Virus record (IMG/VR): IMGVR_UViG_3300034356_001764
Location: 1 to 64,000 of that record
Reading direction: 5' to 3' (one strand)
Origin: a virus
DNA: 64,000 bases
The notes under the pieces are model-generated. The model saw only the letters and a list, made by a program, of their open reading frames with translations. It had not been told where the DNA came from and made no database searches. This document shows, piece by piece, positions 26,703 through 60,103 of the stretch. Within the stretch, counting starts at the first letter, position 1, and every line of letters starts with the position of its first letter. The position numbers and the translations under genes were made by a program.

Positions 26703-29700
26703 TTAGTCAATTTCTTCAATTACATAACCATCTTTAATATATCTATTAATCTCTGCTTGTGTAAGATTTGCTACCATCCCTCCTTCTTTAGCTTTAACTG
26801 CACCCTTTACTAAGGCTTTAGTTCTACTTCCAGACGGATCTTTTATAGGAACATATGTATTACCTGTTGATTTCCCGGTGTTAATATACCATTTACCATT
26901 TGAATCTTTCTTATAAGTTACTCCAGGTCTTTCAGGATATTTATAAACTGTACTTTGGAGTGTAACTTTCTTAGTATAATCAGGTGCTACAAATGGCTTC
27001 AACTTATTTGCATCTTTGTATGGATTATAAACAGCAGTAGACTCAGTAGGTACAAGTTTTGAATAAGCAAAATTTGGATTACTCTTTTCATACTCAGCTT
27101 GTTTTTTATTTTTTTCTGCTATGTCTTTACGAACCTGTTCTCTTTGAGCATCCTCACTAGCTTTTTCTCTTGCTGTAATTCCTTTTTGTACTATACTATA
27201 TTCTTTTTGTAATTGATTAGTTGAACTTGTATTACCTATTATTTCATTAGCTTGCTTCAATACATTATTACTATAATCTATATCAAAGTTATTAATATAT
27301 TTTTGATACTTCTCTCTCTTATACCAATCAGAACCTGCTTGCCAAGACTTAGCTAAAATATAAGATGCAGGTATCTTTCCTTTGTATAGACCAGTCTTAA
27401 CATTAAAGTCTTTATCTTTTTTAAGTTTTTCATAATTGTCCAAAAGAATAATTGCACCCGCTTTAGTCTGTGCTTCAATATCAAATGTTCCAATATCTTT
27501 AGGATCAACTCCAAGTTTTTCTAACTTTTTACCAAGGGCATTTAATGAACCATCTTTATTTACAAAGTTTAAAGTAGGTTTCATTTGATAATAACCAATA
27601 CTTGCTTCATCTCCTTCAAAGGCTCCTTGACCAAGAACATCTTTATAAACAGTAGCTGCAACTTGTTTAGGAATTCTTTTATTTGATTCACCACCTGAAC
27701 TTTCATTCTGCATGATTCCACCTACAAGGATCTGTCCTACAAAGTTTGTATCCTCTTGACTATAACCTAGATTTTTAATGTTTCTAACATTGTTATTAAT
27801 AACACCTGTTGCTTGTTTTTGACGCTCAGTTGCTGTTTTACCTGCTACTAGTTTTAGTTTAGGATCAACTGTGCTATAATATCCTGTGTTCTGTAATCCA
27901 GATAAGTCAGCATTTTTAAGACTTGGGGATCTTACAATAGATGCAACTTGATAAGTAAATACACTTTTGTCATGATCATCAAGACTTATTGGCTCATCAA
28001 GTCTTTTGATAAAAGCTTTTCCTTTTTCAGAAGCATGCCAAATTAGTGGCGTACCATCTTTATCTTTACCAACTACAAATCCAAGGTGCTCAACATTTTC
28101 ATTTTCTAAACCACCTTTTGTTTCTGAAGCAAACTCTCCACTTGTTTTTGTATTCATTCTATTGAGCTGTACATAATCACCAACTTGTAATTTTGCATAA
28201 ACATCTTTAGGAACCTTTGGCATCTTAGCCATATCTCTTTCTGTAGTTTCATAAATAAGATCTCCACCTTTATTAAGAACATCAGATTTATTAAACCAAG
28301 CATCATTTGCCCATATATCTCCATCAGCTATTTCACCAAGTAAGTTACTCATCTTAACACTTACATTGAATGAACATCCTTTACCTTCAACACAAACTTC
28401 TTCTCCTTCCCCTTTATCAAGATATGGTAAGTAACCTACTCCAAGATTTTTGTTAACCGTATACTTAGTACTTTGTGATTGTTTTTTTGGTTCAATTGTT
28501 TTTACCTTAGATGGAGGAATACCAGAATTAAATGCATCTAATGCCATCTTTGTTCTGTTACCCATAATACCATCAACTCCATCTCTACTTGGACCTGAAG
28601 CTCCAATGTTATATCCAGCTGCTACTAGTTTCTTTTGAATTGCTTTAACATCACCTGATTGTTCAATCTTTGGCATTGCTATTTTCTCTACTTCTTTCTT
28701 AGTAAGTGTTGGTTGATCTACTACTGGAGTGTTCACTAGGGTAGCTGGTTGCTGAACTGTTGTAGCTACCACAGGTTCAGTAACAACTGGAGGTGCAACA
28801 AGATCACCTGTAGGCATCATATCAGGTGCTAACATAGGAGTCACAACCGGACTCTGACTTTGTTGCATAGTTGGAACAGTTGGTACACCACCATCTTGAA
28901 ACTTAACTTCCTCTATAGTAAACCCACCTTTTCTATAGTACTCTATTTCTTCATCATCAAGATCTAGTTCAATAAAACCACCATCTTCTTCTTGTTGTAA
29001 AGCTTTACCTCCTAATGATTTAGTAGATTTTTTAGGAAGCATTTCATAAATACCTTTCTCATTTTGTTTAGCTAAACCTTGTCTTTCTAAACTTTGCCAT
29101 GTGTTTCTTCCTGGAGCTACTCCATTATTTTCAACAAAGGCACCCCATGATCTAACTTTATTTCCTTCTGGTAATGATTCATTTAACTGCTTATAAACTT
29201 CTGTTCCTATACCTTGTCTTTGAAATTTAGGATCAACTCCTATATCCAATGTTTCAAAATCACCACTGGATAATCTATTACCTGAAACTTCACCAACTTT
29301 TGTATCTCCTTTATAAACCCCAAAAGTCTCCATGTCTAATTCTTGAGATCTTACATTATCAGGTAAAAGTTTTATATTCATATTTTTAGGTGCACTTGTA
29401 ATTTTTTTACTAGTTCCAAGTACATCTTCTGCGTAAGAGCCTACTTTACCAAATTTACCAACTTTACCTAACTTACCCAATGAACCAATTCCTGGTAACA
29501 CACCTGCTACATCTAATGTTTTATCTAACCCTGACCAATATTGATTTCCTGTAAGAGGATTTATATTAGTATTTCCTGTACCAAATGCAGAACCTATTCC
29601 TGGATTAGCAGACAGTGCAACATCAGCAACTGTATTACCTACTCCTTTAAGTGTACCCATGGGATCTTTTGCAATACGCAATAATGCTGGAGCTCCAGTT

Positions 29701-31976
29701 AATTCTAGCACTGCATCAGTAACTCCCATATTAGCTTCTTTTCTAGTATTAGCTTGATCTACTGCATCCTGATATTGGCCTTTATAACCTTCCTTCATTG
29801 TAGCTTGGTCATACTTACCCCAACCTCTTTCATCATACAGTCTGGCAAAGTCAGAAGTTGATATCTTACCTTCTTGAACCTTTCTTCTAGCACGTTCATA
29901 ATCTTGAGCTCCTTGATTATGTTCTTTAACTCCTTGTGTAAATCTTTGAAGTTCTTTTATAGAAAAGTCTTTAGGTTTTAAATCTTGATACCAAAGCTTT
30001 CTACCTTGAGCAGTATTCATAAGAGCTTTACTCTTATCCATTAACTCTTTCCAGCGTTCTTTATCTGAAGCTTTTGCATAAGCAAATGTTTCCGCTTCAT
30101 CTTGAGATTTATCTATAATGGGTTGTTGTGAACCTTCTTGAGCTTGAGGTAGTTCTTCTACTATATAACCACCTTTTCTATACTGTTCAATTTCTTGAGG
30201 AGTTAAATCCATTTCAACATACCCACCATCTTCTTGCATGGCCATCTTGTCATTAACTCCGTATGCCCATCTTTTATATGCAGTGCGGCCTTCTCTTAAT
30301 GGAAGACTTGGTATTTCTTCACCACCTTTTTGTGCATGCACTAATCCTTGACCACCACATTTATGACATGTAGTAACATCATCACTACCATCTGCAGCAT
30401 TCCATTTCCAACCACATTTTTTACAGGTTACTTTCTTAGTAAGTAAAGCACCTCCTTTTTGTTCTTTATTTAAAAAAGCTGGTGATACTGATTTATAATG
30501 TTCTGCAAAATATTGGGCATCTGCAGGATTATTAAATCTTATTGCTTCATTAGATTCTGGACCATAATCACCAAGCATTAACTGACCATTCTCATTTTGT
30601 ATTTGAGGTACAGCATAATTATCCATACTAGCCATATAGTGAGTACCTGTATTACCATTTTCAAATTGATATGGATTATCAGTAGGGACAACCATTCTTT
30701 TTGCAGCAGGATTGCCAAATTCATTTGCATAAGCAAGCTTTGCTTTCATCATACCACTTGTATAATCTTGCAAATGAGATGGTAAAGGAATATCATATTC
30801 TCCTTCTTCATTATGTGAATCTACTACAGCTTGTCCTTCTGGAGTAGTTTCTCTCCAGTTTCTATACTCATTAAGTTTATTTTGAATTAAATTATAATCA
30901 TCAAGTGTCCAACCTTTAGGATTTCCAATTTGATTTTCTATGGCTTTAATTTCTTTTCCCCATTCTTGTGGAGTTGTTGAACCACCAAATTGAAACAGTT
31001 GTCCACTAAATCCAAGTTTATCAATTACAGATTGTTTATTATCAATATGTCTATCAATACCAAGCTCTCTTACTTTAGCTACCTTAGCTTCATCTGAACC
31101 CATTGCAAAGATTCTATCTTCTGGGATACCTGCATTACGTGCCCTAGTGATCATATCTGGTGTTACTTCTTCTCTAGCAGATATAATATACTTCTGATCA
31201 CTAGGTGTATTCATTGCCATTTCCATTCCTGCATCAGTTGTAAGAGTATCATCATAGTCAAATGATACAATACCACCATCTGCGTAGAAACTTGCATTAG
31301 GATCAAAGATTTTTCTTTTTCTAGATTTAGGTACTTCAAATAAAGGATTCAATGCAAACAATCTATTTGTTGCTTCAAGACTTCTTGAATAAGCTTTTGA
31401 TTTAATTCCTTTTGATCCAGTAGGTATTCTTACTTTAGGAGTTTGCCCACCTTTCTTAAAATCTTCAGGTTGCTCAAGCTCTGGTTGAAGTCTGTAATCA
31501 GTTGTTAATTCTTCCCCAGCTTTAATATCTCTTTTTGCATAGACATATCTTTCATTACCTTTTTTAACACTATACATGTTAGGTGTGTCAGAGTGATTAT
31601 GCATCTTTCCAATCTCTCCTACTGGTTGACCATTTCTATGCGCTAAACCTATAAGTTGATTTTTTTTAAAAAAAGTATTTGCAAACAATCCTTTATCAGC
31701 TCCTGCAATTTTTGATTGTTTAACTACTAAATGACTGTTAGCTTTATTACCTCCTTTTTTTAATTCAGGATATTCATCAACATACTTAGCACCCGGAAAA
31801 TTATATTCCTCCTCTGGATGCATCATTACTGGTGAACCAAAATCTGGATAAGCCATGACAGGATATGGAACATTGTCCATGGTTATGTCATTACCTGGAA
31901 TTCTAGTTGGTACTCCAGGATGTGCCCACTGACCTCTTGGATCAACAATAATTTTAGATTTAGATTTCTTATTCAT
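26703..31976 (-). CDS. Multi-domain virion polyprotein (1757 aa): N-terminal GQWAHPG domain, SET, HAD-like, Zn ribbon, GNAT, peptidoglycan-binding, NlpC/P60-like, lysozyme/transglycosylase-like
   Basis: SET: KGLFA...HNHSDTPN...AKRDIKAGEELTTDY. HAD: SFDYDDTL...ISAR...HIDN. Zn ribbon: CKKC...CHKC. GNAT: VDPKFQRQGIGTEVY. PG-binding: VKAIQKKLVAAGY...VDGIMGNRTKMAL. Also GCSFNV...HLGFV...IWHAS and MQNESSGG...SIGYYQMK. Confidence 0.8.
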   Translation of the reverse strand: MNKKSKSKIIVDPRGQWAHPGVPTRIPGNDITMDNVPYPVMAYPDFGSPVMMHPEEEYNFPGAKYVDEYPELKKGGNKANSHLVVKQSKIAGADKGLFANTFFKKNQLIGLAHRNGQPVGEIGKMHNHSDTPNMYSVKKGNERYVYAKRDIKAGEELTTDYRLQPELEQPEDFKKGGQTPKVRIPTGSKGIKSKAYSRSLEATNRLFALNPLFEVPKSRKRKIFDPNASFYADGGIVSFDYDDTLTTDAGMEMAMNTPSDQKYIISAREEVTPDMITRARNAGIPEDRIFAMGSDEAKVAKVRELGIDRHIDNKQSVIDKLGFSGQLFQFGGSTTPQEWGKEIKAIENQIGNPKGWTLDDYNLIQNKLNEYRNWRETTPEGQAVVDSHNEEGEYDIPLPSHLQDYTSGMMKAKLAYANEFGNPAAKRMVVPTDNPYQFENGNTGTHYMASMDNYAVPQIQNENGQLMLGDYGPESNEAIRFNNPADAQYFAEHYKSVSPAFLNKEQKGGALLTKKVTCKKCGWKWNAADGSDDVTTCHKCGGQGLVHAQKGGEEIPSLPLREGRTAYKRWAYGVNDKMAMQEDGGYVEMDLTPQEIEQYRKGGYIVEELPQAQEGSQQPIIDKSQDEAETFAYAKASDKERWKELMDKSKALMNTAQGRKLWYQDLKPKDFSIKELQRFTQGVKEHNQGAQDYERARRKVQEGKISTSDFARLYDERGWGKYDQATMKEGYKGQYQDAVDQANTRKEANMGVTDAVLELTGAPALLRIAKDPMGTLKGVGNTVADVALSANPGIGSAFGTGNTNINPLTGNQYWSGLDKTLDVAGVLPGIGSLGKLGKVGKFGKVGSYAEDVLGTSKKITSAPKNMNIKLLPDNVRSQELDMETFGVYKGDTKVGEVSGNRLSSGDFETLDIGVDPKFQRQGIGTEVYKQLNESLPEGNKVRSWGAFVENNGVAPGRNTWQSLERQGLAKQNEKGIYEMLPKKSTKSLGGKALQQEEDGGFIELDLDDEEIEYYRKGGFTIEEVKFQDGGVPTVPTMQQSQSPVVTPMLAPDMMPTGDLVAPPVVTEPVVATTVQQPATLVNTPVVDQPTLTKKEVEKIAMPKIEQSGDVKAIQKKLVAAGYNIGASGPSRDGVDGIMGNRTKMALDAFNSGIPPSKVKTIEPKKQSQSTKYTVNKNLGVGYLPYLDKGEGEEVCVEGKGCSFNVSVKMSNLLGEIADGDIWANDAWFNKSDVLNKGGDLIYETTERDMAKMPKVPKDVYAKLQVGDYVQLNRMNTKTSGEFASETKGGLENENVEHLGFVVGKDKDGTPLIWHASEKGKAFIKRLDEPISLDDHDKSVFTYQVASIVRSPSLKNADLSGLQNTGYYSTVDPKLKLVAGKTATERQKQATGVINNNVRNIKNLGYSQEDTNFVGQILVGGIMQNESSGGESNKRIPKQVAATVYKDVLGQGAFEGDEASIGYYQMKPTLNFVNKDGSLNALGKKLEKLGVDPKDIGTFDIEAQTKAGAIILLDNYEKLKKDKDFNVKTGLYKGKIPASYILAKSWQAGSDWYKREKYQKYINNFDIDYSNNVLKQANEIIGNTSSTNQLQKEYSIVQKGITAREKASEDAQREQVRKDIAEKNKKQAEYEKSNPNFAYSKLVPTESTAVYNPYKDANKLKPFVAPDYTKKVTLQSTVYKYPERPGVTYKKDSNGKWYINTGKSTGNTYVPIKDPSGSRTKALVKGAVKAKEGGMVANLTQAEINRYIKDGYVIEEID

Positions 31977-52134: not shown

Positions 52135-53751
52135 TTAGAATGATCCACCAGTAATTGGATTTCTCATGACAATCTTCAATACTTTAGTTGGATCTTTAAC
52201 CCAAATAGCTGGCATTGTTTGAGACATCATTACACGGTATCCATTGAATTGTCCAGAAGACTGGAATCCTTGAGAACGTCCCATATAATCCATAGTACCA
52301 TTCTGATACCACCACTTCAATTGATTATCCCAAGACAATTTCAACAAGAAGATGTTATCATTTGTGTTGTCTGTGATATCAAAGATAATGAATGAGTAAG
52401 AAGATAATGGGAAACCATCAATGATTGGGTTCTCAATATCATTTGTATGAATGTTGTCAAATGCAGGATTCAATACAAACTTCACGTTAGCCAAGAATGG
52501 AATAACATAAGAAGTGTAAGCAAATCCAAAATTCAAGTCCATACCTTTACCAGTGATAGCACCAATATCAGCAGCCTGAATCAAAAGACCTGAAGATACT
52601 GCTTCTCTTTTGATGGCTTCATTTACCATACGCATACCACCCATACCAGTTTGAACAACTAAGCTACGCTTAGGATCTGGACCTTGGAACTCAACCTTAC
52701 CATTGAAGAAGTTGTAGATTTCTCCACGGAACAAATCCAATGTAAAGTTATTCTTATTGTATACTCTTTTGAAAGAGTTATCCAATTGCTTCCAAAGACC
52801 CACTGACATTCTGATATCATCTGGTCCATCTTGCTTAACACGTCCACCGTGACCCCACATAAGGTAAGTCTCAATATCTGTAGCAATTTTAGACAAGTGA
52901 GCAGATTCCATATTTGTCAAGAATGATCTAGAAAGATCTCCATTGTCAAATGCTTTCTTCACTTTGTCTTTACCCATAACCTTCACCATGTCTTCCAAAG
53001 AAGTAACAGATGGATCAATGTTTTTGTCAAATGTTCTCCAGATCTCAGTTACTGGAACTGTACCATCTGCATTCATTCCACCTTTAATCATCAAGTCAGC
53101 ACGTGATGAGATAGAATAATGTACGTGAGCTTCTGCTCCTCCTACATAGTTGTAGAATTCACGGAAACCTGTTTTAGTGATGATGTCAGAGAATCTTTCA
53201 CCATATTCACCACGTGCAGAACCTTTACGGAAAACTTTAGTACCATTTGATAAGTACTTGTTCTCTAAGTATTTGTAGTTGTCATTGTTTACTAACTGAA
53301 CAGTATAGATATAGCCATCTCCAATTGGAAGGATATCTTCATCTGTAATGTACATCTCACAACCATTGTATTTGTCATATGTGATGATATCACCATGTCC
53401 AAACTCACGTCTGCTTAATTTGATGCGGAAAGTACTTCCATCAACACCTTTAAAAGTATTGTCTGGTTCAATATCCTCAATTACATAAGGAAGCTCATTA
53501 GAGACAGGTGTTTGCCACTTGTACTCTCCACGAGCATTATCAACCATTATTACATTCTTTCCACCGAAGCTAGACATTTGGTAAAGAGGCATTTCAACCT
53601 TCTGAGCCATAGCCCAAAGGTCCACTGGACCTAGATCCATTGGTTCTGCATCCTTCAACATGTTAACCAAGTGGTAGGAATCTACGTGTGAACTAGCATT
53701 GTAGTTGGTATCCCGTAGAAATATACCATTGTTTAAAACTGGAGTTGCCAT
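52135..53751 (-). CDS. Major capsid protein (crAss-like HK97 fold)
   Basis: 538 aa; third gene after TerL in the TerL-portal-gene77-MCP block; GEYKW, ETYLMWG, VGLWKQL, WVKDPTK motifs; followed by a terminator. Confidence 0.85.
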   Translation of the reverse strand: MATPVLNNGIFLRDTNYNASSHVDSYHLVNMLKDAEPMDLGPVDLWAMAQKVEMPLYQMSSFGGKNVIMVDNARGEYKWQTPVSNELPYVIEDIEPDNTFKGVDGSTFRIKLSRREFGHGDIITYDKYNGCEMYITDEDILPIGDGYIYTVQLVNNDNYKYLENKYLSNGTKVFRKGSARGEYGERFSDIITKTGFREFYNYVGGAEAHVHYSISSRADLMIKGGMNADGTVPVTEIWRTFDKNIDPSVTSLEDMVKVMGKDKVKKAFDNGDLSRSFLTNMESAHLSKIATDIETYLMWGHGGRVKQDGPDDIRMSVGLWKQLDNSFKRVYNKNNFTLDLFRGEIYNFFNGKVEFQGPDPKRSLVVQTGMGGMRMVNEAIKREAVSSGLLIQAADIGAITGKGMDLNFGFAYTSYVIPFLANVKFVLNPAFDNIHTNDIENPIIDGFPLSSYSFIIFDITDNTNDNIFLLKLSWDNQLKWWYQNGTMDYMGRSQGFQSSGQFNGYRVMMSQTMPAIWVKDPTKVLKIVMRNPITGGSF

Positions 53752-55142: not shown

Positions 55143-57893
55143 CTATTTTTTAGTTTTACTGTCTTTACCAGAATCATATTTATTCTTGTTAATTCTAGCA
55201 ATTTCAACTTGTTTGTTTGCTATATCTTCTTGCACTTGAAGCTTTCTTTCTTCAATACTCATCTTTTGAGAATGTCTAATATTGTCATCAGATTGTTTTT
55301 CTCTTTGTAAATCCATTTGACTTTGGTACTGTTCTGTCTGTCTAATGTTTTTCATTTCATCCTGATAATCTGATATCTCATTCTTATTGATATCCTGCAT
55401 TGCACCAAATCCAGCAGATCTAATTTCAGCAACAGTAATATTATTTGCAAGCTCTCTTTCTTGTTTATCAGCATCAGCTTGAATTTTAGCTTGTAACTGT
55501 TTCTCTTGAGATGCAAGTTGTTCTTGTTGCATTTGTTGTGCAGCTTGTTGCTCTTGTTGTTTCTGTTGTTGTATCTTAGCTTCAGAATCTTTAAGCACTG
55601 AGTTAAGCTCTGAGATTGAATCTGACTGAACTAATTTACCTAAGTCATATATAGAGGCCCCTGTTGTATTATTCTGCATTGCCATAGACTTTAATTGTTC
55701 TAGTACAGCTCTGTGGTTTGCAGTAGTTGTACAGAATATATTAAGATCGCGCATTAGAAGGTCTGTGCCATTGATTTGAAAGTTTACCTTTTCATCATTG
55801 CCGGTTATGTATGTTAGTCTACTGGAAGGTTTTGTAGAATGATAATACTGTGCAAGGTCAGTTCTCATCTGATGTACTCTTGGCATTAGATAATCACAGT
55901 GTTGAATAAAGAATACTTCTGTTTGAGCATAAGATGCTGCGGCAGCTTGTTCTACTCCGGTAGCAGTCATTTGTGATAACTGAGCACCCATACGTTGTGG
56001 GTTTACTCCTATAACTTCATAAGCCTGTTGCTTAAAGTGGTTAGCTAATTGTACCCTTGACATTAATCTTTCTGTCTGAGATAGATCTAGTTTTTGGAAA
56101 TGCTGAAAGTTTAATGCATTCTCTGTATTTGTAATACTAGTATCAAGAGGTAGAATTTGAAAATTCTTCATTGCTGTATAGGCATTAGCATAATTTCCTT
56201 TTCCCCAGTCTTCACCCAAGGAATGCTTTGGTAAAGTATTTTGGTCAAGCATGATGATAGTACCAAGTTCATCTACCAGGATATCAGCTATTTGATTGTT
56301 GACAATGTTATATCCAATCTGGTATGGCTTCATTAAATCAATCAATGCAGTAGACTTTGTATTTCTATCAGAGAACACCGCTCCTTCTACAGGAAGCTTG
56401 CAACCATAAAGAGTATTATCACCTTTAAATTGAAACTTTAAAGAGCTAATGTGGTTCTTATCTATACCTACATAGATAGGAGAGAATCCACCGGGGTTAT
56501 TCATACCCCAGAAAGAAGGAATGTTTGGTCCAATTTTTACACCACCCCACACTTCATTAATCCAAATCCAATCAATATGCTCACCATATACTAAATTGTC
56601 TTTAGTTTTATTCTTGAAAAGTCTAGTATCATAGATTGGTTTTTCTTCAACTTTGTAGTCTTCAGTTATTACTTCATTAATAACTTCTCCATTCTCAGCT
56701 ACTTTAGTTAAGTTACCAACTTTACGCTGAGACTTCCAATATACTGTTGATACTCTTAATAAGTATGCAGTACCTTGATCATAATAATCTTCTCCCTCAG
56801 ACAAAATCTGATTGATTATGTCTCCTTGGTTGATAACACTACCGTTCATTGCTGAGGTATACTGTCTGTAAGCAAGAGAAGGCATCTGAGTATTCCACTC
56901 ATGTGATTTAGTTCCATCATACATAGAACCATCATTTTGGATACCACCAATTGTATATCCTGCAGATCTAATTGGGTAAACAGCTTCTAGTGCTTCTAAT
57001 TGTTCAGTTGTCATCTGATAACCATAACGGTCAATAACATCTGATGCTGTCATCATGTCTGTTTTACCAACCCATTGTGACTGAGAAATATATCTTGCAT
57101 CTGGAGATTTGTGGTAGAAAGTAATAGCTGGATTCCATAACTCTACTTCATAGTCATCCTCCATCATTCTAAAATGCCAGAATTCTCTATCTGTAATGAG
57201 CATGTCCCTGAAGCCTCTCTCTTCTAGTTCATCCATTTTAAATCTTTCAACATCTACTTTGTGCTGGTGAGTTGCCCACTCTTCAACCATTGATCTATAA
57301 TCCTTCTTAAAGAATTGCTCTATCTCTGGTAAAGTTTTAAGATTCTCTGGATTTAATTGTTGTTGTGCTTCTTCAGATTCTGGATCAAGACCTTGCTCTA
57401 ACAAAGCTGCAGTAAGTTTAATTTGAGCATCTGCCATAAGAACTTCTTCAACTGCAGCACGTTTTTGTTCCATCATCTCATTGTATGAGAACTCATCAAC
57501 AGCTCTGTATGTTAATTTAGTTGATCTCTTAGCAAATTCAGCTACTAGAACATTAATAACATTAGGTATGATTGGGTAGAATCTTAACTCTAAAGCTGAC
57601 TGATCCTCTTTAGTAAGAACATCAACCATGTCTCTATAGTCATTATCTTCTTCAACTATATAATCTGATTTATCAATTACACCTTTAGCCAACTTATAGT
57701 TTTTCATAAGTCTTCTAGCATTTCTTCTAATCTGCTTAAGTCCTTGCCACTCAACCCAGTCTAGATTCCATGCTGCCCACTGCTGATCTTTCTCAGCTTT
57801 TGGTAAAAATTGTAATGGCTGAGTAATACTACCAATTCTATTAGGTTTAGTTTTAGCCCCAGCTTTGGCTTGCATTGCGTTAATTATCTGCAT
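55143..57893 (-). CDS. Portal protein
   Basis: 916 aa after TerL; FYPIIPNVINVLVAEF, WINEVWGG.KIG, LIDLMKPYQ, GVNPQRMG motifs; Q-rich C-terminal barrel. Confidence 0.9.
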   Translation of the reverse strand: MQIINAMQAKAGAKTKPNRIGSITQPLQFLPKAEKDQQWAAWNLDWVEWQGLKQIRRNARRLMKNYKLAKGVIDKSDYIVEEDNDYRDMVDVLTKEDQSALELRFYPIIPNVINVLVAEFAKRSTKLTYRAVDEFSYNEMMEQKRAAVEEVLMADAQIKLTAALLEQGLDPESEEAQQQLNPENLKTLPEIEQFFKKDYRSMVEEWATHQHKVDVERFKMDELEERGFRDMLITDREFWHFRMMEDDYEVELWNPAITFYHKSPDARYISQSQWVGKTDMMTASDVIDRYGYQMTTEQLEALEAVYPIRSAGYTIGGIQNDGSMYDGTKSHEWNTQMPSLAYRQYTSAMNGSVINQGDIINQILSEGEDYYDQGTAYLLRVSTVYWKSQRKVGNLTKVAENGEVINEVITEDYKVEEKPIYDTRLFKNKTKDNLVYGEHIDWIWINEVWGGVKIGPNIPSFWGMNNPGGFSPIYVGIDKNHISSLKFQFKGDNTLYGCKLPVEGAVFSDRNTKSTALIDLMKPYQIGYNIVNNQIADILVDELGTIIMLDQNTLPKHSLGEDWGKGNYANAYTAMKNFQILPLDTSITNTENALNFQHFQKLDLSQTERLMSRVQLANHFKQQAYEVIGVNPQRMGAQLSQMTATGVEQAAAASYAQTEVFFIQHCDYLMPRVHQMRTDLAQYYHSTKPSSRLTYITGNDEKVNFQINGTDLLMRDLNIFCTTTANHRAVLEQLKSMAMQNNTTGASIYDLGKLVQSDSISELNSVLKDSEAKIQQQKQQEQQAAQQMQQEQLASQEKQLQAKIQADADKQERELANNITVAEIRSAGFGAMQDINKNEISDYQDEMKNIRQTEQYQSQMDLQREKQSDDNIRHSQKMSIEERKLQVQEDIANKQVEIARINKNKYDSGKDSKTKK

Positions 57894-57898
57894 AACTC

Positions 57899-60103
57899 TT
57901 ATTTAATATTTTTGAATGGTGATCTTTTAAAATTCTGACCATTGCCAAGTTGGCCTCTTCCCATATGACGGAAAGGACTCCTATTTAATTTAAACAAATT
58001 TTCTGACTTTTGCAAGTTTTTAGCTGCATCATCCATGATTACTCTCTTTGAATAACCTCTGTTAGCTTGTTGAATTCTCATGAAAGCAACAAGTGCACAA
58101 AATGAAACCAGCCTATCCACATTGACTCCATCTGAATATTCTCTCATTTCCTTTAGAAGCATAGGATCTGGAATCCTTTCAATACCATATTTGGTTCTTA
58201 CAATAGTTCCATCAGGTTTTGTTTCTACATCTAATTCTTCTTTAGTGTATTCAATCGCATAACTTAACAAGTGAGCTTTAAATAATACACCTGTATTCTT
58301 CCAACCATACTCCTGGAATACATTAGCATTGGCACCAAGATCTTTCAAGAAAAGTATTTGACTCTTAGGTACTAAGAATCTTTGCTTCTTTCTAGAAATC
58401 ATATACTGGATAAAAAGAGAAATGTTATTCTCTATTACTGTCCATGCATTGTACCATTCTATGATAAGCTCTAATTGCTGGTGTGTTTTATTGATATCAT
58501 CATATCTACCACACCATGATGCTACAATTCTATCTTGTTCAATGAAGGTCTCTGTCTCAGTTCCAGAAATCTTAGTTACCTCTACTGGAGCTTTCATTAT
58601 ATAGATAGAACATAATGATTCTGATGTTGTTGTTTTACCTTCTGATACAGGGTCAATAGAAGCGTAATACTGTCCGAAGGTTGGGTCAGGAATTGGTCTT
58701 TCCCATACAACAATACAACCAGTTTTATCTTCAGTCTTTTTAGATACTGGAAATTCAGAGATAGGTCTTTTATTACTAGTCTTTACACTTGGTTTTCCGT
58801 TCTCATCTGTAGAGATATCTAAAAACTCATAAGCATATTCTTTTTCTTCTATTCTTCTTTCCTGAGCTCCAATAAGATGTGTAGGAAATACAGATACAGT
58901 TCTATTAGCAAAGGCCTCTTCAATGTTTCTAGGATGCTGAGAGATTCTTAACTGGTAAGTTTCCGGGTCTAATTCTTTTTTCCATTTATCAAACTGTTCA
59001 TCTAAAGCCTTTAATGCTTCTTCTACAAGTGAATTACCATATTGATCTATGTATGGTGGCATTGACCATTGCTCAGGAATAAATAATCCAGATAATCCTA
59101 CAGTTCTATTCTTGTCTAGTAAGTTAGATTCAACAGCATAGATATCATTATCTGAAGGATGTAATATCATTTTTCTTAGTGGTTCACATTGTGATAAATC
59201 ACCCACAGATCCTGCAGCTATAAACATTCCTGTAGTAGTCAAACCAGATCTCATAGCAGGACGCATGTACTCATATGTTTTATTCATCTTAGGAGCAATC
59301 CCGGCCTCTTCATGAAAGAAGTATTTAACTGGACCCCCTACACCATTTGTAGGATCCTTTTCAAATGACATACCTTGTATAGTTCCTTTAAGACCTACTT
59401 CATTTTTTCTGTCACCTTTTCTTACCTCAATCTTCTGCTGCCACATCATTACTTTGCTTGGATTCATTGGACGGTACCAAGCTGTGTGCTCATTTAAGAA
59501 TGCTGCATATTCATCTAAGAATTTCCAAGAACCTTTTTCATTGATGTAATCTTTAAGACTTGCTCCAATCTTTAGTGTGACCCCTGCCTCAAACCATTGT
59601 TGACAAAGTAACTTTGCCATGTGATAATATGAAGATGCAATCTGACGTTTCTTTAATACTGCAACATGTTGATAATTAAGTTCAGCAAGCATTTCATAAA
59701 GAGCAAGATGATACTGGGCATCTCTAATATCTGCAAATCCAAACTGTTGTATCTCTTTGTTAAAGATAGGTAAGAAGTTTAACCACATGTAATACTCCCG
59801 CGCTAGATACCAGTTCTTTTCTCCACTCTTAATTAAGACACCTTTTCTGCACTTAGCTTTTTGATCATCCCAATAATTTAAAAAGTCTTTTGATTTAAAT
59901 GGAGCCATGGTATAAACATTCTGCATTTTAAATCTTCTTGATTCTACTGTAAATAGATCAGCACTTACTTCATCAAACTGATATTCACCTGGTTCTTTAA
60001 AAATGCTAAATAAAAAAGTAGCAAACTCTTCTCTAGTTTCAAAAGAAGTTATTGTCCAAGTACCGTTATCCCACGTAGGAATATCTTGATATATCTCACT
60101 CAT
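57899..60103 (-). CDS. terL: Terminase large subunit
   Basis: Walker A-like LKKRQIASSY, Walker B YFFHEEAG, GSVG motif, RNase H-like IDPVS...VIENN...NVDRL. Confidence 0.92.
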   Translation of the reverse strand: MSEIYQDIPTWDNGTWTITSFETREEFATFLFSIFKEPGEYQFDEVSADLFTVESRRFKMQNVYTMAPFKSKDFLNYWDDQKAKCRKGVLIKSGEKNWYLAREYYMWLNFLPIFNKEIQQFGFADIRDAQYHLALYEMLAELNYQHVAVLKKRQIASSYYHMAKLLCQQWFEAGVTLKIGASLKDYINEKGSWKFLDEYAAFLNEHTAWYRPMNPSKVMMWQQKIEVRKGDRKNEVGLKGTIQGMSFEKDPTNGVGGPVKYFFHEEAGIAPKMNKTYEYMRPAMRSGLTTTGMFIAAGSVGDLSQCEPLRKMILHPSDNDIYAVESNLLDKNRTVGLSGLFIPEQWSMPPYIDQYGNSLVEEALKALDEQFDKWKKELDPETYQLRISQHPRNIEEAFANRTVSVFPTHLIGAQERRIEEKEYAYEFLDISTDENGKPSVKTSNKRPISEFPVSKKTEDKTGCIVVWERPIPDPTFGQYYASIDPVSEGKTTTSESLCSIYIMKAPVEVTKISGTETETFIEQDRIVASWCGRYDDINKTHQQLELIIEWYNAWTVIENNISLFIQYMISRKKQRFLVPKSQILFLKDLGANANVFQEYGWKNTGVLFKAHLLSYAIEYTKEELDVETKPDGTIVRTKYGIERIPDPMLLKEMREYSDGVNVDRLVSFCALVAFMRIQQANRGYSKRVIMDDAAKNLQKSENLFKLNRSPFRHMGRGQLGNGQNFKRSPFKNIK

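Follow-up and report, generated by a model that had tools for sequence, protein, structure and literature searches.

Polyvalent proteins, GNAT acetyltransferases included, have been described as early effectors that travel with the virion DNA (Iyer, Burroughs, Anand, de Souza and Aravind 2017, PMC5512222). A second point of reference is the phage crAss001, in which cargo proteins encoded behind the muzzle gene are stored in the tail and the capsid, and cargo C1 (gp45, 90.8 kDa) is thought to be ejected first, ahead of the DNA (Bayfield et al. 2023, PMC10172136). Here, we compare these systems with an uninterrupted open reading frame (ORF) of 1757 residues at positions 26703..31976 on the minus strand of a window of 64,000 nucleotides of viral DNA (IMG/VR record IMGVR_UViG_3300034356_001764, positions 1 to 64,000). 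The record itself measures 80 kb and is ~68% complete; its first 64 kb make up the window. The product of the ORF is labeled P0001; all coordinates refer to the window, and all features of P0001 described below lie on the minus strand. We propose, with a probability of about 0.7, that P0001 is a virion-delivered polyvalent protein whose wall-cutting tail would aid entry and whose SET, GNAT and HAD modules would act early on molecules of the host or, less likely, of the phage. An initial annotation of the DNA had placed a SET methyltransferase domain (31490-31735, residues 81-162), a GNAT domain (29040-29370, residues 869-979) and a HAD-like domain (31000-31272, residues 235-325) in a phage cargo protein. 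The three stretches are real and belong to the single ORF 26703-31976 (minus strand), and the term cargo protein is reasonable for one large modular protein encoded in the virion-gene block of a phage.

P0001 consists of at least 12 modules. Like the polyvalent proteins of PMC5512222, it unites many unrelated small enzyme domains in one chain, among them a GNAT, and it shares with them the virion-gene setting and the shuffling of modules. When residues 1-1030 of P0001 were searched exhaustively against representative clusters, 3203 of them matched at E ≤ 1e-3, of which 473 also reached E ≤ 1e-30; the module counts given in this study refer to the best 150 of these 3203 representative clusters. 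The 150 relatives carry the modules in many orders and numbers: SET is found in 69 of them, HAD in 14, and GNAT in 9. At least two unrelated effector-type domains are therefore combined with shuffling, and the gene is located among virion and packaging genes; the class of polyvalent proteins fits P0001 because its gene comes after one for a virion structural protein in a distant crAss-like phage. Unlike the set described in PMC5512222, P0001 comes from a crAss-like lineage, has Gly-Gly borders between its modules, contains a repeated motif of 26 residues, and ends in a cell-wall module, whereas MuF, zincin or ART hubs are typical of that set. As a domain, SET is absent from the text of PMC5512222 and from the jumbo-phage survey of the same group, and full-text literature searches yielded no paper in which SET domains are connected with Crassvirales or with phage polyvalent proteins. 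Besides SET, the traits that are new for the polyvalent class are the crAss-like background, the cassette borders at Gly-Gly, and the motif that is repeated.

The predicted minimal SET domain (residues 83-173; 31458..31730) matches Pfam PF00856 above the curated cut-off (38.6 versus 22.4 bits, E 1.5e-9). A profile built from eight SET relatives finds vSET of PBCV-1 as its first match in the PDB (1n3j, E 3.7e-6, nearly full length), followed by the SET domains of MLL and EZH2; the match of this predicted domain is far beyond chance. The motifs GLFA, NHS and ELTTDY are all present in the module. Conservation was assessed on 74 related SET modules from clusters at 50% identity: G96, L97, H113, N127, H128, E156, Y161 and a few more residues are shared by all 74, T158 is kept in 73 and G92 in 72. 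Both the NH pair that binds the cofactor and the catalytic Tyr are among the invariant residues, and the conserved motifs are GxG, NH and E..T..Y. The closest known relative in structure databases, vSET (A612L), methylates histone H3 K27. The SET module of P0001 resembles it in being viral and minimal and in keeping GxG, NHS and E..Y; unlike vSET, a free-standing protein of 119 residues from a eukaryotic virus, it has ~90 residues, with ~21 insert residues fewer, and is one module of a 1757-residue phage protein.

The statement of the initial annotation that SET domains are unusual in tailed phages is borne out by the deposited phage genomes. The SET segment alone gave nothing significant against 50,697 phage records (best E 0.2), no match to the whole P0001 gene or protein was obtained in the same records with megablast or tblastn, and PHROGs has no family for the SET module or for P0001. 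IMG/VR contains 104 contigs that encode SET relatives, and stand-alone proteins of similar length with this type of SET number only three. Four of the 69 SET-bearing relatives carry two copies (P0014, P0015, P0037 and P0083); the copies are ~40 residues apart in three of these proteins and ~240 residues apart in P0015.

The small GNAT acetyltransferase module (residues 868-990; 29007..29375) is recognized by its Q-x-Q-G-I-G loop, by Pfam and by structural matches. Acetyltransf_1 scores only just above its cut-off (21.0 versus 20.7 bits, E 4e-4) and Acetyltransf_7 below it (22.6 versus 27). Across the P0001 module and its nine relatives, F-Q-x-Q-G of the acetyl-CoA loop is invariant and the following I-G is conserved to at least 90%; these relatives, like the additional HAD relatives (alignment A6), were aligned as whole proteins. 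They came solely from the search of representative proteins, as a scan of viral contigs with the GNAT segment returned no relatives. The AlphaFold model of the module has a predicted local distance difference test score (pLDDT) of 73 and a predicted template modeling score (pTM) of 0.68. Among the Foldseek matches listed for this model, almost all are GNAT-type acetyltransferases, with a probability of ~1.0 but weak scores (best E 7.5e-4, template modeling score ~0.45-0.5); in VIA-align, GNATs account for all 50 best matches, with Z scores of 8.0-9.4. The latter span the protein acetyltransferases RimI, RimL and Naa50, the tRNA-acetylating toxins TacT and AtaT, and the anti-CRISPR protein AcrVA5. 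These matches are convincing, and for the modeled module the assignment to the GNAT fold is settled. AcrVA5 acetylates Cas12a and thereby disables a host defence protein. The P0001 module is like AcrVA5 (PDB 6iuf) in that both are very small GNATs of mobile elements that match in structure (Z 8.4 over 87 residues); however, AcrVA5 stands out neither by score, with 50 GNAT matches nearly tied, nor by any specific kinship in sequence, and it is free-standing instead of being a module encoded in a virion block.

Profile searches thus bear out the domains of the initial annotation to different degrees: SET lies above the cut-off, GNAT only at the cut-off, and for the HAD-like stretch there is no Pfam match. 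The assignment of the latter, a capless HAD-like phosphatase module (residues 237-330; 30987..31268), draws on its four motifs, its model and its VIA matches. D9, D11, T13, S35, K67 and D81-N82 of the module are invariant in alignment A2, or almost invariant in A6. AlphaFold models the module as a five-strand Rossmann-like fold (pLDDT 93.3, pTM 0.86), in which these residues occupy the places of HAD motifs I-IV: DxDxT after strand 1, Ser after strand 2, Lys in the helix before strand 4, and D-N after strand 4. A profile search of the PDB with the module gave a weak match to 4eze (E 0.11), and Foldseek returned weak, mixed Rossmann-like structures, none of them at E ≤ 0.001. The 50 VIA matches are mostly HAD enzymes, among them 3cnh (Z 10.5), the 3'-phosphatase of T4 Pnkp (Z 10.3, with a root-mean-square deviation of 2.7 across 97 residues), a deoxyribonucleotidase-like protein (Z 9.2) and Pnkp1 of RNA repair (Z 9.1). 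The nearest clusters in the ESM Atlas are small viral proteins of PNK3P, HAD_PNKP, Acid_phosphat_B, HAD_SAK_1 and NT5C types; with scores of 0.79-0.85, they serve as a lead only. The HAD identity of residues 237-330 is probable, and judged by the model the module looks like a capless phosphatase most similar to nucleic-acid 3'-end or nucleotide phosphatases. In its modeled, probably HAD-type fold and in the order of its motifs, it resembles T4 Pnkp 3'-phosphatase (5uj0, 1ltq) and small viral HAD phosphatases; unlike T4 Pnkp, to which it is 16% identical, it has no kinase partner, and at ~95 residues it is smaller than the solved examples. Compared with the closest relative, the ratio of nonsynonymous to synonymous substitution rates (dN/dS) is 0.21 for SET and 0.17 for HAD, which indicates purifying selection on both modules.

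A HAD-like module with 45-47% identity also occurs inside quite different large phage proteins encoded on IMG/VR contigs L026-L035, some of which carry a 'YQRGVGAYN.SHSP...WALARVNAFL' domain. Its presence in these proteins suggests that the module moves between unrelated polyvalent proteins.

What the initial annotation overlooked is the predicted wall-binding and wall-cutting part, which comprises the C-terminal 650 residues. The C-terminal third of P0001 is conserved in the relatives, with 39-86% identity. It includes a peptidoglycan-binding domain (residues 1107-1165; 28482..28658), for which the match to Pfam PG_binding_1 is below the cut-off (E 1e-3) and a profile matches the same domain of the effector 4nso (E 1.8e-3). 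The adjacent region (residues 1185-1345; 27942..28424) is a probable cysteine peptidase of NlpC/P60 or CHAP type. Cys and His residues in it are invariant in the relatives, and the order of its motifs resembles, by our reading, that of NlpC/P60 peptidases. There is no Pfam match to this region; 20 of the 30 Atlas matches are NlpC/P60 or CHAP clusters (four family sets are listed; scores 0.92-0.93), and two DUF1989 clusters top the list with 0.94. Farther towards the C-terminus, a possible lysozyme- or transglycosylase-like domain (residues 1395-1570; 27267..27794) is proposed on motifs only: MQNESSGG and GYYQMK are conserved in the relatives, and profile searches gave no confirmation for this stretch. 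Cell-wall modules are likewise known from ejected virion proteins of podoviruses, e.g. T7. The C-terminal wall module is the best clue within P0001 itself, and it suggests that the protein is ejected.

All large genes of the window are encoded on the minus strand, and P0001 is preceded on this strand by the genes for the terminase (57899-60103), the portal protein (55143-57893) and the major head protein (52135-53751), all three assigned with PHROGs, as well as by smaller structural genes. P0001 belongs to a row of giant ORFs with, in order, 1843 residues, P0001, 1313, 767, 996, 2131 and more than 3652 residues. The 1843-residue ORF directly upstream of P0001 is homologous to annotated virion structural proteins of the Cellulophaga phages phi17:2 and phi4:1, and also to a gene of the Leptolyngbya phage Lbo-JY46. 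The portal protein shares 23-34% identity with portals of gut crAss-like phages, of Flavobacterium and Cellulophaga phages and, as the best match, of Lbo-JY46. Furthermore, many metagenomes of lake water, dated 2020, 2023 and 2024, include contigs with a nearly identical copy of the P0001 gene. On the evidence of these sequences, the source is a persistent freshwater phage that is distantly crAss-like.

The N-terminal module of P0001 (residues 1-80; 31737..31976), the conserved head of the gene family, is the first module in 70 of the 150 relatives. In a comparison with all phage records, it is 38% identical (E 1e-4) to the start of the Lbo-JY46 gene that follows the structural homolog. The same gene slot and the shared N-terminal module in Lbo-JY46 suggest that P0001 occupies a conserved slot of the structural block in which the head of the protein is conserved and the body variable. 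The gene of this cultured phage (13566-15053 of PP438436.1) encodes only 495 residues. With the gp45 gene of crAss001, the P0001 gene has in common that it lies in the block after a large structural gene of a crAss-type phage; gp45 has no enzyme domains as far as it is described in the parts of PMC10172136 considered here, whereas P0001 is twice as long and consists mostly of enzymes. Packaging and ejection of P0001 can be inferred on good grounds.

The architecture of the relatives is characterized by an exchange of cassettes. In the close relatives of P0001, the C-terminal wall module is kept and the front is swapped; several of them begin directly with SET, HAD occurs in just one other protein, and GNAT in none. 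Every module of P0001 ends with x-G-G, and it is exactly there that relatives swap modules; border positions are residues 75-76, 176-177, 234-235, 331-332, 508-509, 551-552, 584-585, 999-1000 and others. Such a border may serve as a flexible joint or as a site for a protease. Contigs from other lake metagenomes join positions 28952/31294, 30753/31294 and 28315/30492 of the window and skip 2341, 540 and 2176 bases, respectively. At the first two junctions, the repeat motif or the module that begins at residue 404 comes immediately after the end of the link module (described below), an arrangement also seen in the close relatives. These junctions point to co-occurring relatives with other cassette orders, although the support is weak because the flanks measure only 26-74 bases.

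The repeat of 26 residues, with the consensus G-[YF]-I-E-x-E-L-T-P-E-E-I-E-E-Y-x-K-G-G-Y-I-V-E, is present in three copies, at residues 584-609 (30150..30227), at residues 999-1024 (28905..28982) and at the exact C-terminus (residues 1732-1757; 26706..26783). It is found in 122 of the 150 relatives, where 60 of 181 copies are located at a C-terminus, and in no other ORF of the window; nor are the modules of P0001 repeated in any of these ORFs. The motif may act as a tag for docking or as a processing site, or it may be the scar left by a gene fusion.

Among the remaining modules, the basic 'link' module (residues 177-236; 31269..31448), with the sequence SRSLEATNRLF ... PKSRKRKIFDPN and a GG end, occurs in 105 of the 150 relatives and is positioned after either SET or the N-terminal module. 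A further module (residues 333-504; 30465..30980) has no Pfam or NCBIfam match; its second half, found in 106 of the 150 relatives, is the most common and best-conserved module of the family (residues 404-504; 30465-30767; MMKA[KR]LAYAN..GNPAA ... THYMASMDNYAVPQIQ), with 70-74% identity versus ~55% for the rest of the protein. A profile of residues 404-504 gave no match in the PDB; this module may anchor the protein in the virion. It is followed by a zinc ribbon with four cysteines (residues 509-551; 30324..30452; CxxC...CxxC), which is 71-85% identical in the relatives and varies in position, and by module B1 (residues 620-850; 29427..30119), first helical and then Gly-rich, which 25 of the 150 relatives possess. 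Pfam and NCBIfam contain nothing for B1 or the N-terminal module, and nothing for the C-terminal half. A search for membrane helices in P0001 returned no convincing candidate (highest Kyte-Doolittle value 1.06).

According to the model that we favor, P0001 would be a string of small, independently folding modules that is made late, packed into the virion and delivered into the host together with the DNA. On entry, the C-terminal part, with its peptidoglycan binding, its NlpC/P60-like peptidase and its possible glycosidase, would open the cell wall. SET would transfer methyl groups, and GNAT acetyl groups, to lysines or amino groups of the proteins encountered on entry, and by analogy with AcrVA5 the likelier targets would be nucleoid, translation or defence factors of the host. 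The HAD module would clear 3'-phosphates from nucleic-acid ends, or dephosphorylate nucleotides, as T4 Pnkp does. The GG borders and the 26-residue repeat may be flexible joints kept by recombination, or sites of processing or docking. Each of the three enzyme modules retains its catalytic motifs. In the initial annotation, these modules had been grouped as a 'writer/eraser' toolkit for modifications, together with ART-, Macro- and AlkB-like domains in neighboring cargo. The writer part is reasonable, with the motifs of SET and GNAT intact, but the eraser part does not hold for the HAD module, which resembles polynucleotide 3'-phosphatases or nucleotidases. No Pfam family corresponding to ART or Macro was found in the stretches tried, and AlkB is matched only weakly: 2OG-FeII_Oxy_2 at 101-424 of the minus strand, in the C-terminal part of the ORF with more than 3652 residues (E 4.6e-4, 20.9 bits, cut-off 31.2). 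The targets suggested there (Lys-rich core peptides, IHF-like proteins, or nucleoid and defence proteins of the host) are guesses. The 'writer/eraser toolkit' is a label rather than a finding.

Several results weigh against the delivery of active enzymes by the virion. The upstream ORF of 1843 residues is identifiable as 'virion structural' only, and not as a muzzle protein. Sequence searches revealed no similarity to gp45, and neither P0001 nor its module profiles matched a crAss001 chain in the PDB. The wall enzymes are located at the C-terminus, which is awkward for opening the wall if ejection proceeds from the N- to the C-terminus as proposed for gp45. In the profile alignment with vSET, the SET module lacks ~21 residues of the insert region, so that its activity is not assured. 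By our reading of the alignment, the usual Tyr of the LYEKLGF-like helix is missing from the GNAT module. For the HAD module, no HAD family of Pfam or NCBIfam is matched even at E up to 10, and the best VIA match is a universal stress protein with a non-HAD Rossmann fold (Z 11.7).

These last points lead to a view in which SET, GNAT and HAD are dead folds, kept as bulk, spacers or binding modules, and in which wall cutting is the sole enzymatic task of an ejection protein: SET is cut down, GNAT is short and without its usual Tyr, and HAD is the smallest possible version of its fold. We regard this as very unlikely. The residues that are invariant are those for cofactor binding or catalysis (NH and Tyr in 74 of 74 SET modules; DxDxT, S, K and D-N in HAD; Q-x-Q-G-x-G in GNAT), dN/dS is ~0.2, and similarly small versions are active elsewhere, as vSET with its 119 residues and AcrVA5 with ~95 residues in the solved chain are both active enzymes. 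A different question is whether the enzymes act on proteins of the phage itself, at assembly or before ejection – for example by neutralizing lysines of core or DNA-binding proteins – and not on proteins of the host, an option that the initial annotation had named first. Packing together with internal proteins would provide a high local concentration, and in most architectures the link module, rich in Lys and Arg, directly follows SET. Yet this module stands just as often after the N-terminal module in proteins without SET, so it is not a SET-specific partner. Moreover, SET, HAD and GNAT are each optional in close relatives, which fits accessory weapons better than a step of assembly, and neither S-adenosylmethionine nor acetyl-CoA is expected within a sealed capsid. 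Action on the phage's own proteins is thus unlikely.

It is somewhat easier to imagine P0001 as a polyprotein that a phage protease cuts into separate small enzymes, either at the repeat motif or at the borders marked by Gly-Gly, a possibility that we hold tentatively. x-G-G is found at every module border, and the repeat lies at the exact C-terminus of P0001 and at that of relatives for 60 of the 181 copies, as if internal copies marked former or future ends. However, no protease was found here, and a flexible joint would look like GG too. Such cleavage would be compatible with delivery of P0001 in the virion and is not opposed to it. The model of a virion-delivered polyvalent protein can be carried further: a large, uncultured crAss-like group may inject, together with its DNA, a lysine methyltransferase and an acetyltransferase that rewrite lysines on proteins of the host nucleoid, of translation or of defence within seconds of entry, the enzymes being drawn from shared cassettes that are swapped at Gly-Gly joints and perhaps cleaved there or at the 26-residue repeat. 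This extended version is speculative, and we consider it rather doubtful in its entirety.

To our knowledge, protein lysine methylation of the SET type has hardly been studied in bacteria, and in the literature searched it is not described as a weapon of phages. With its 3203 clusters, the family is a ready source of natural methyltransferases, acetyltransferases and phosphatases of small size, whose cassette borders provide clean boundaries for constructs. Provided that the SET module is active and is injected, ADP-ribosylation and acetylation would be joined by a new chemistry in the early conflict between phage and host. If the injection of SET and GNAT proves true, bacteriophages would have in P0001 an equivalent of the SET effectors known from intracellular pathogens.

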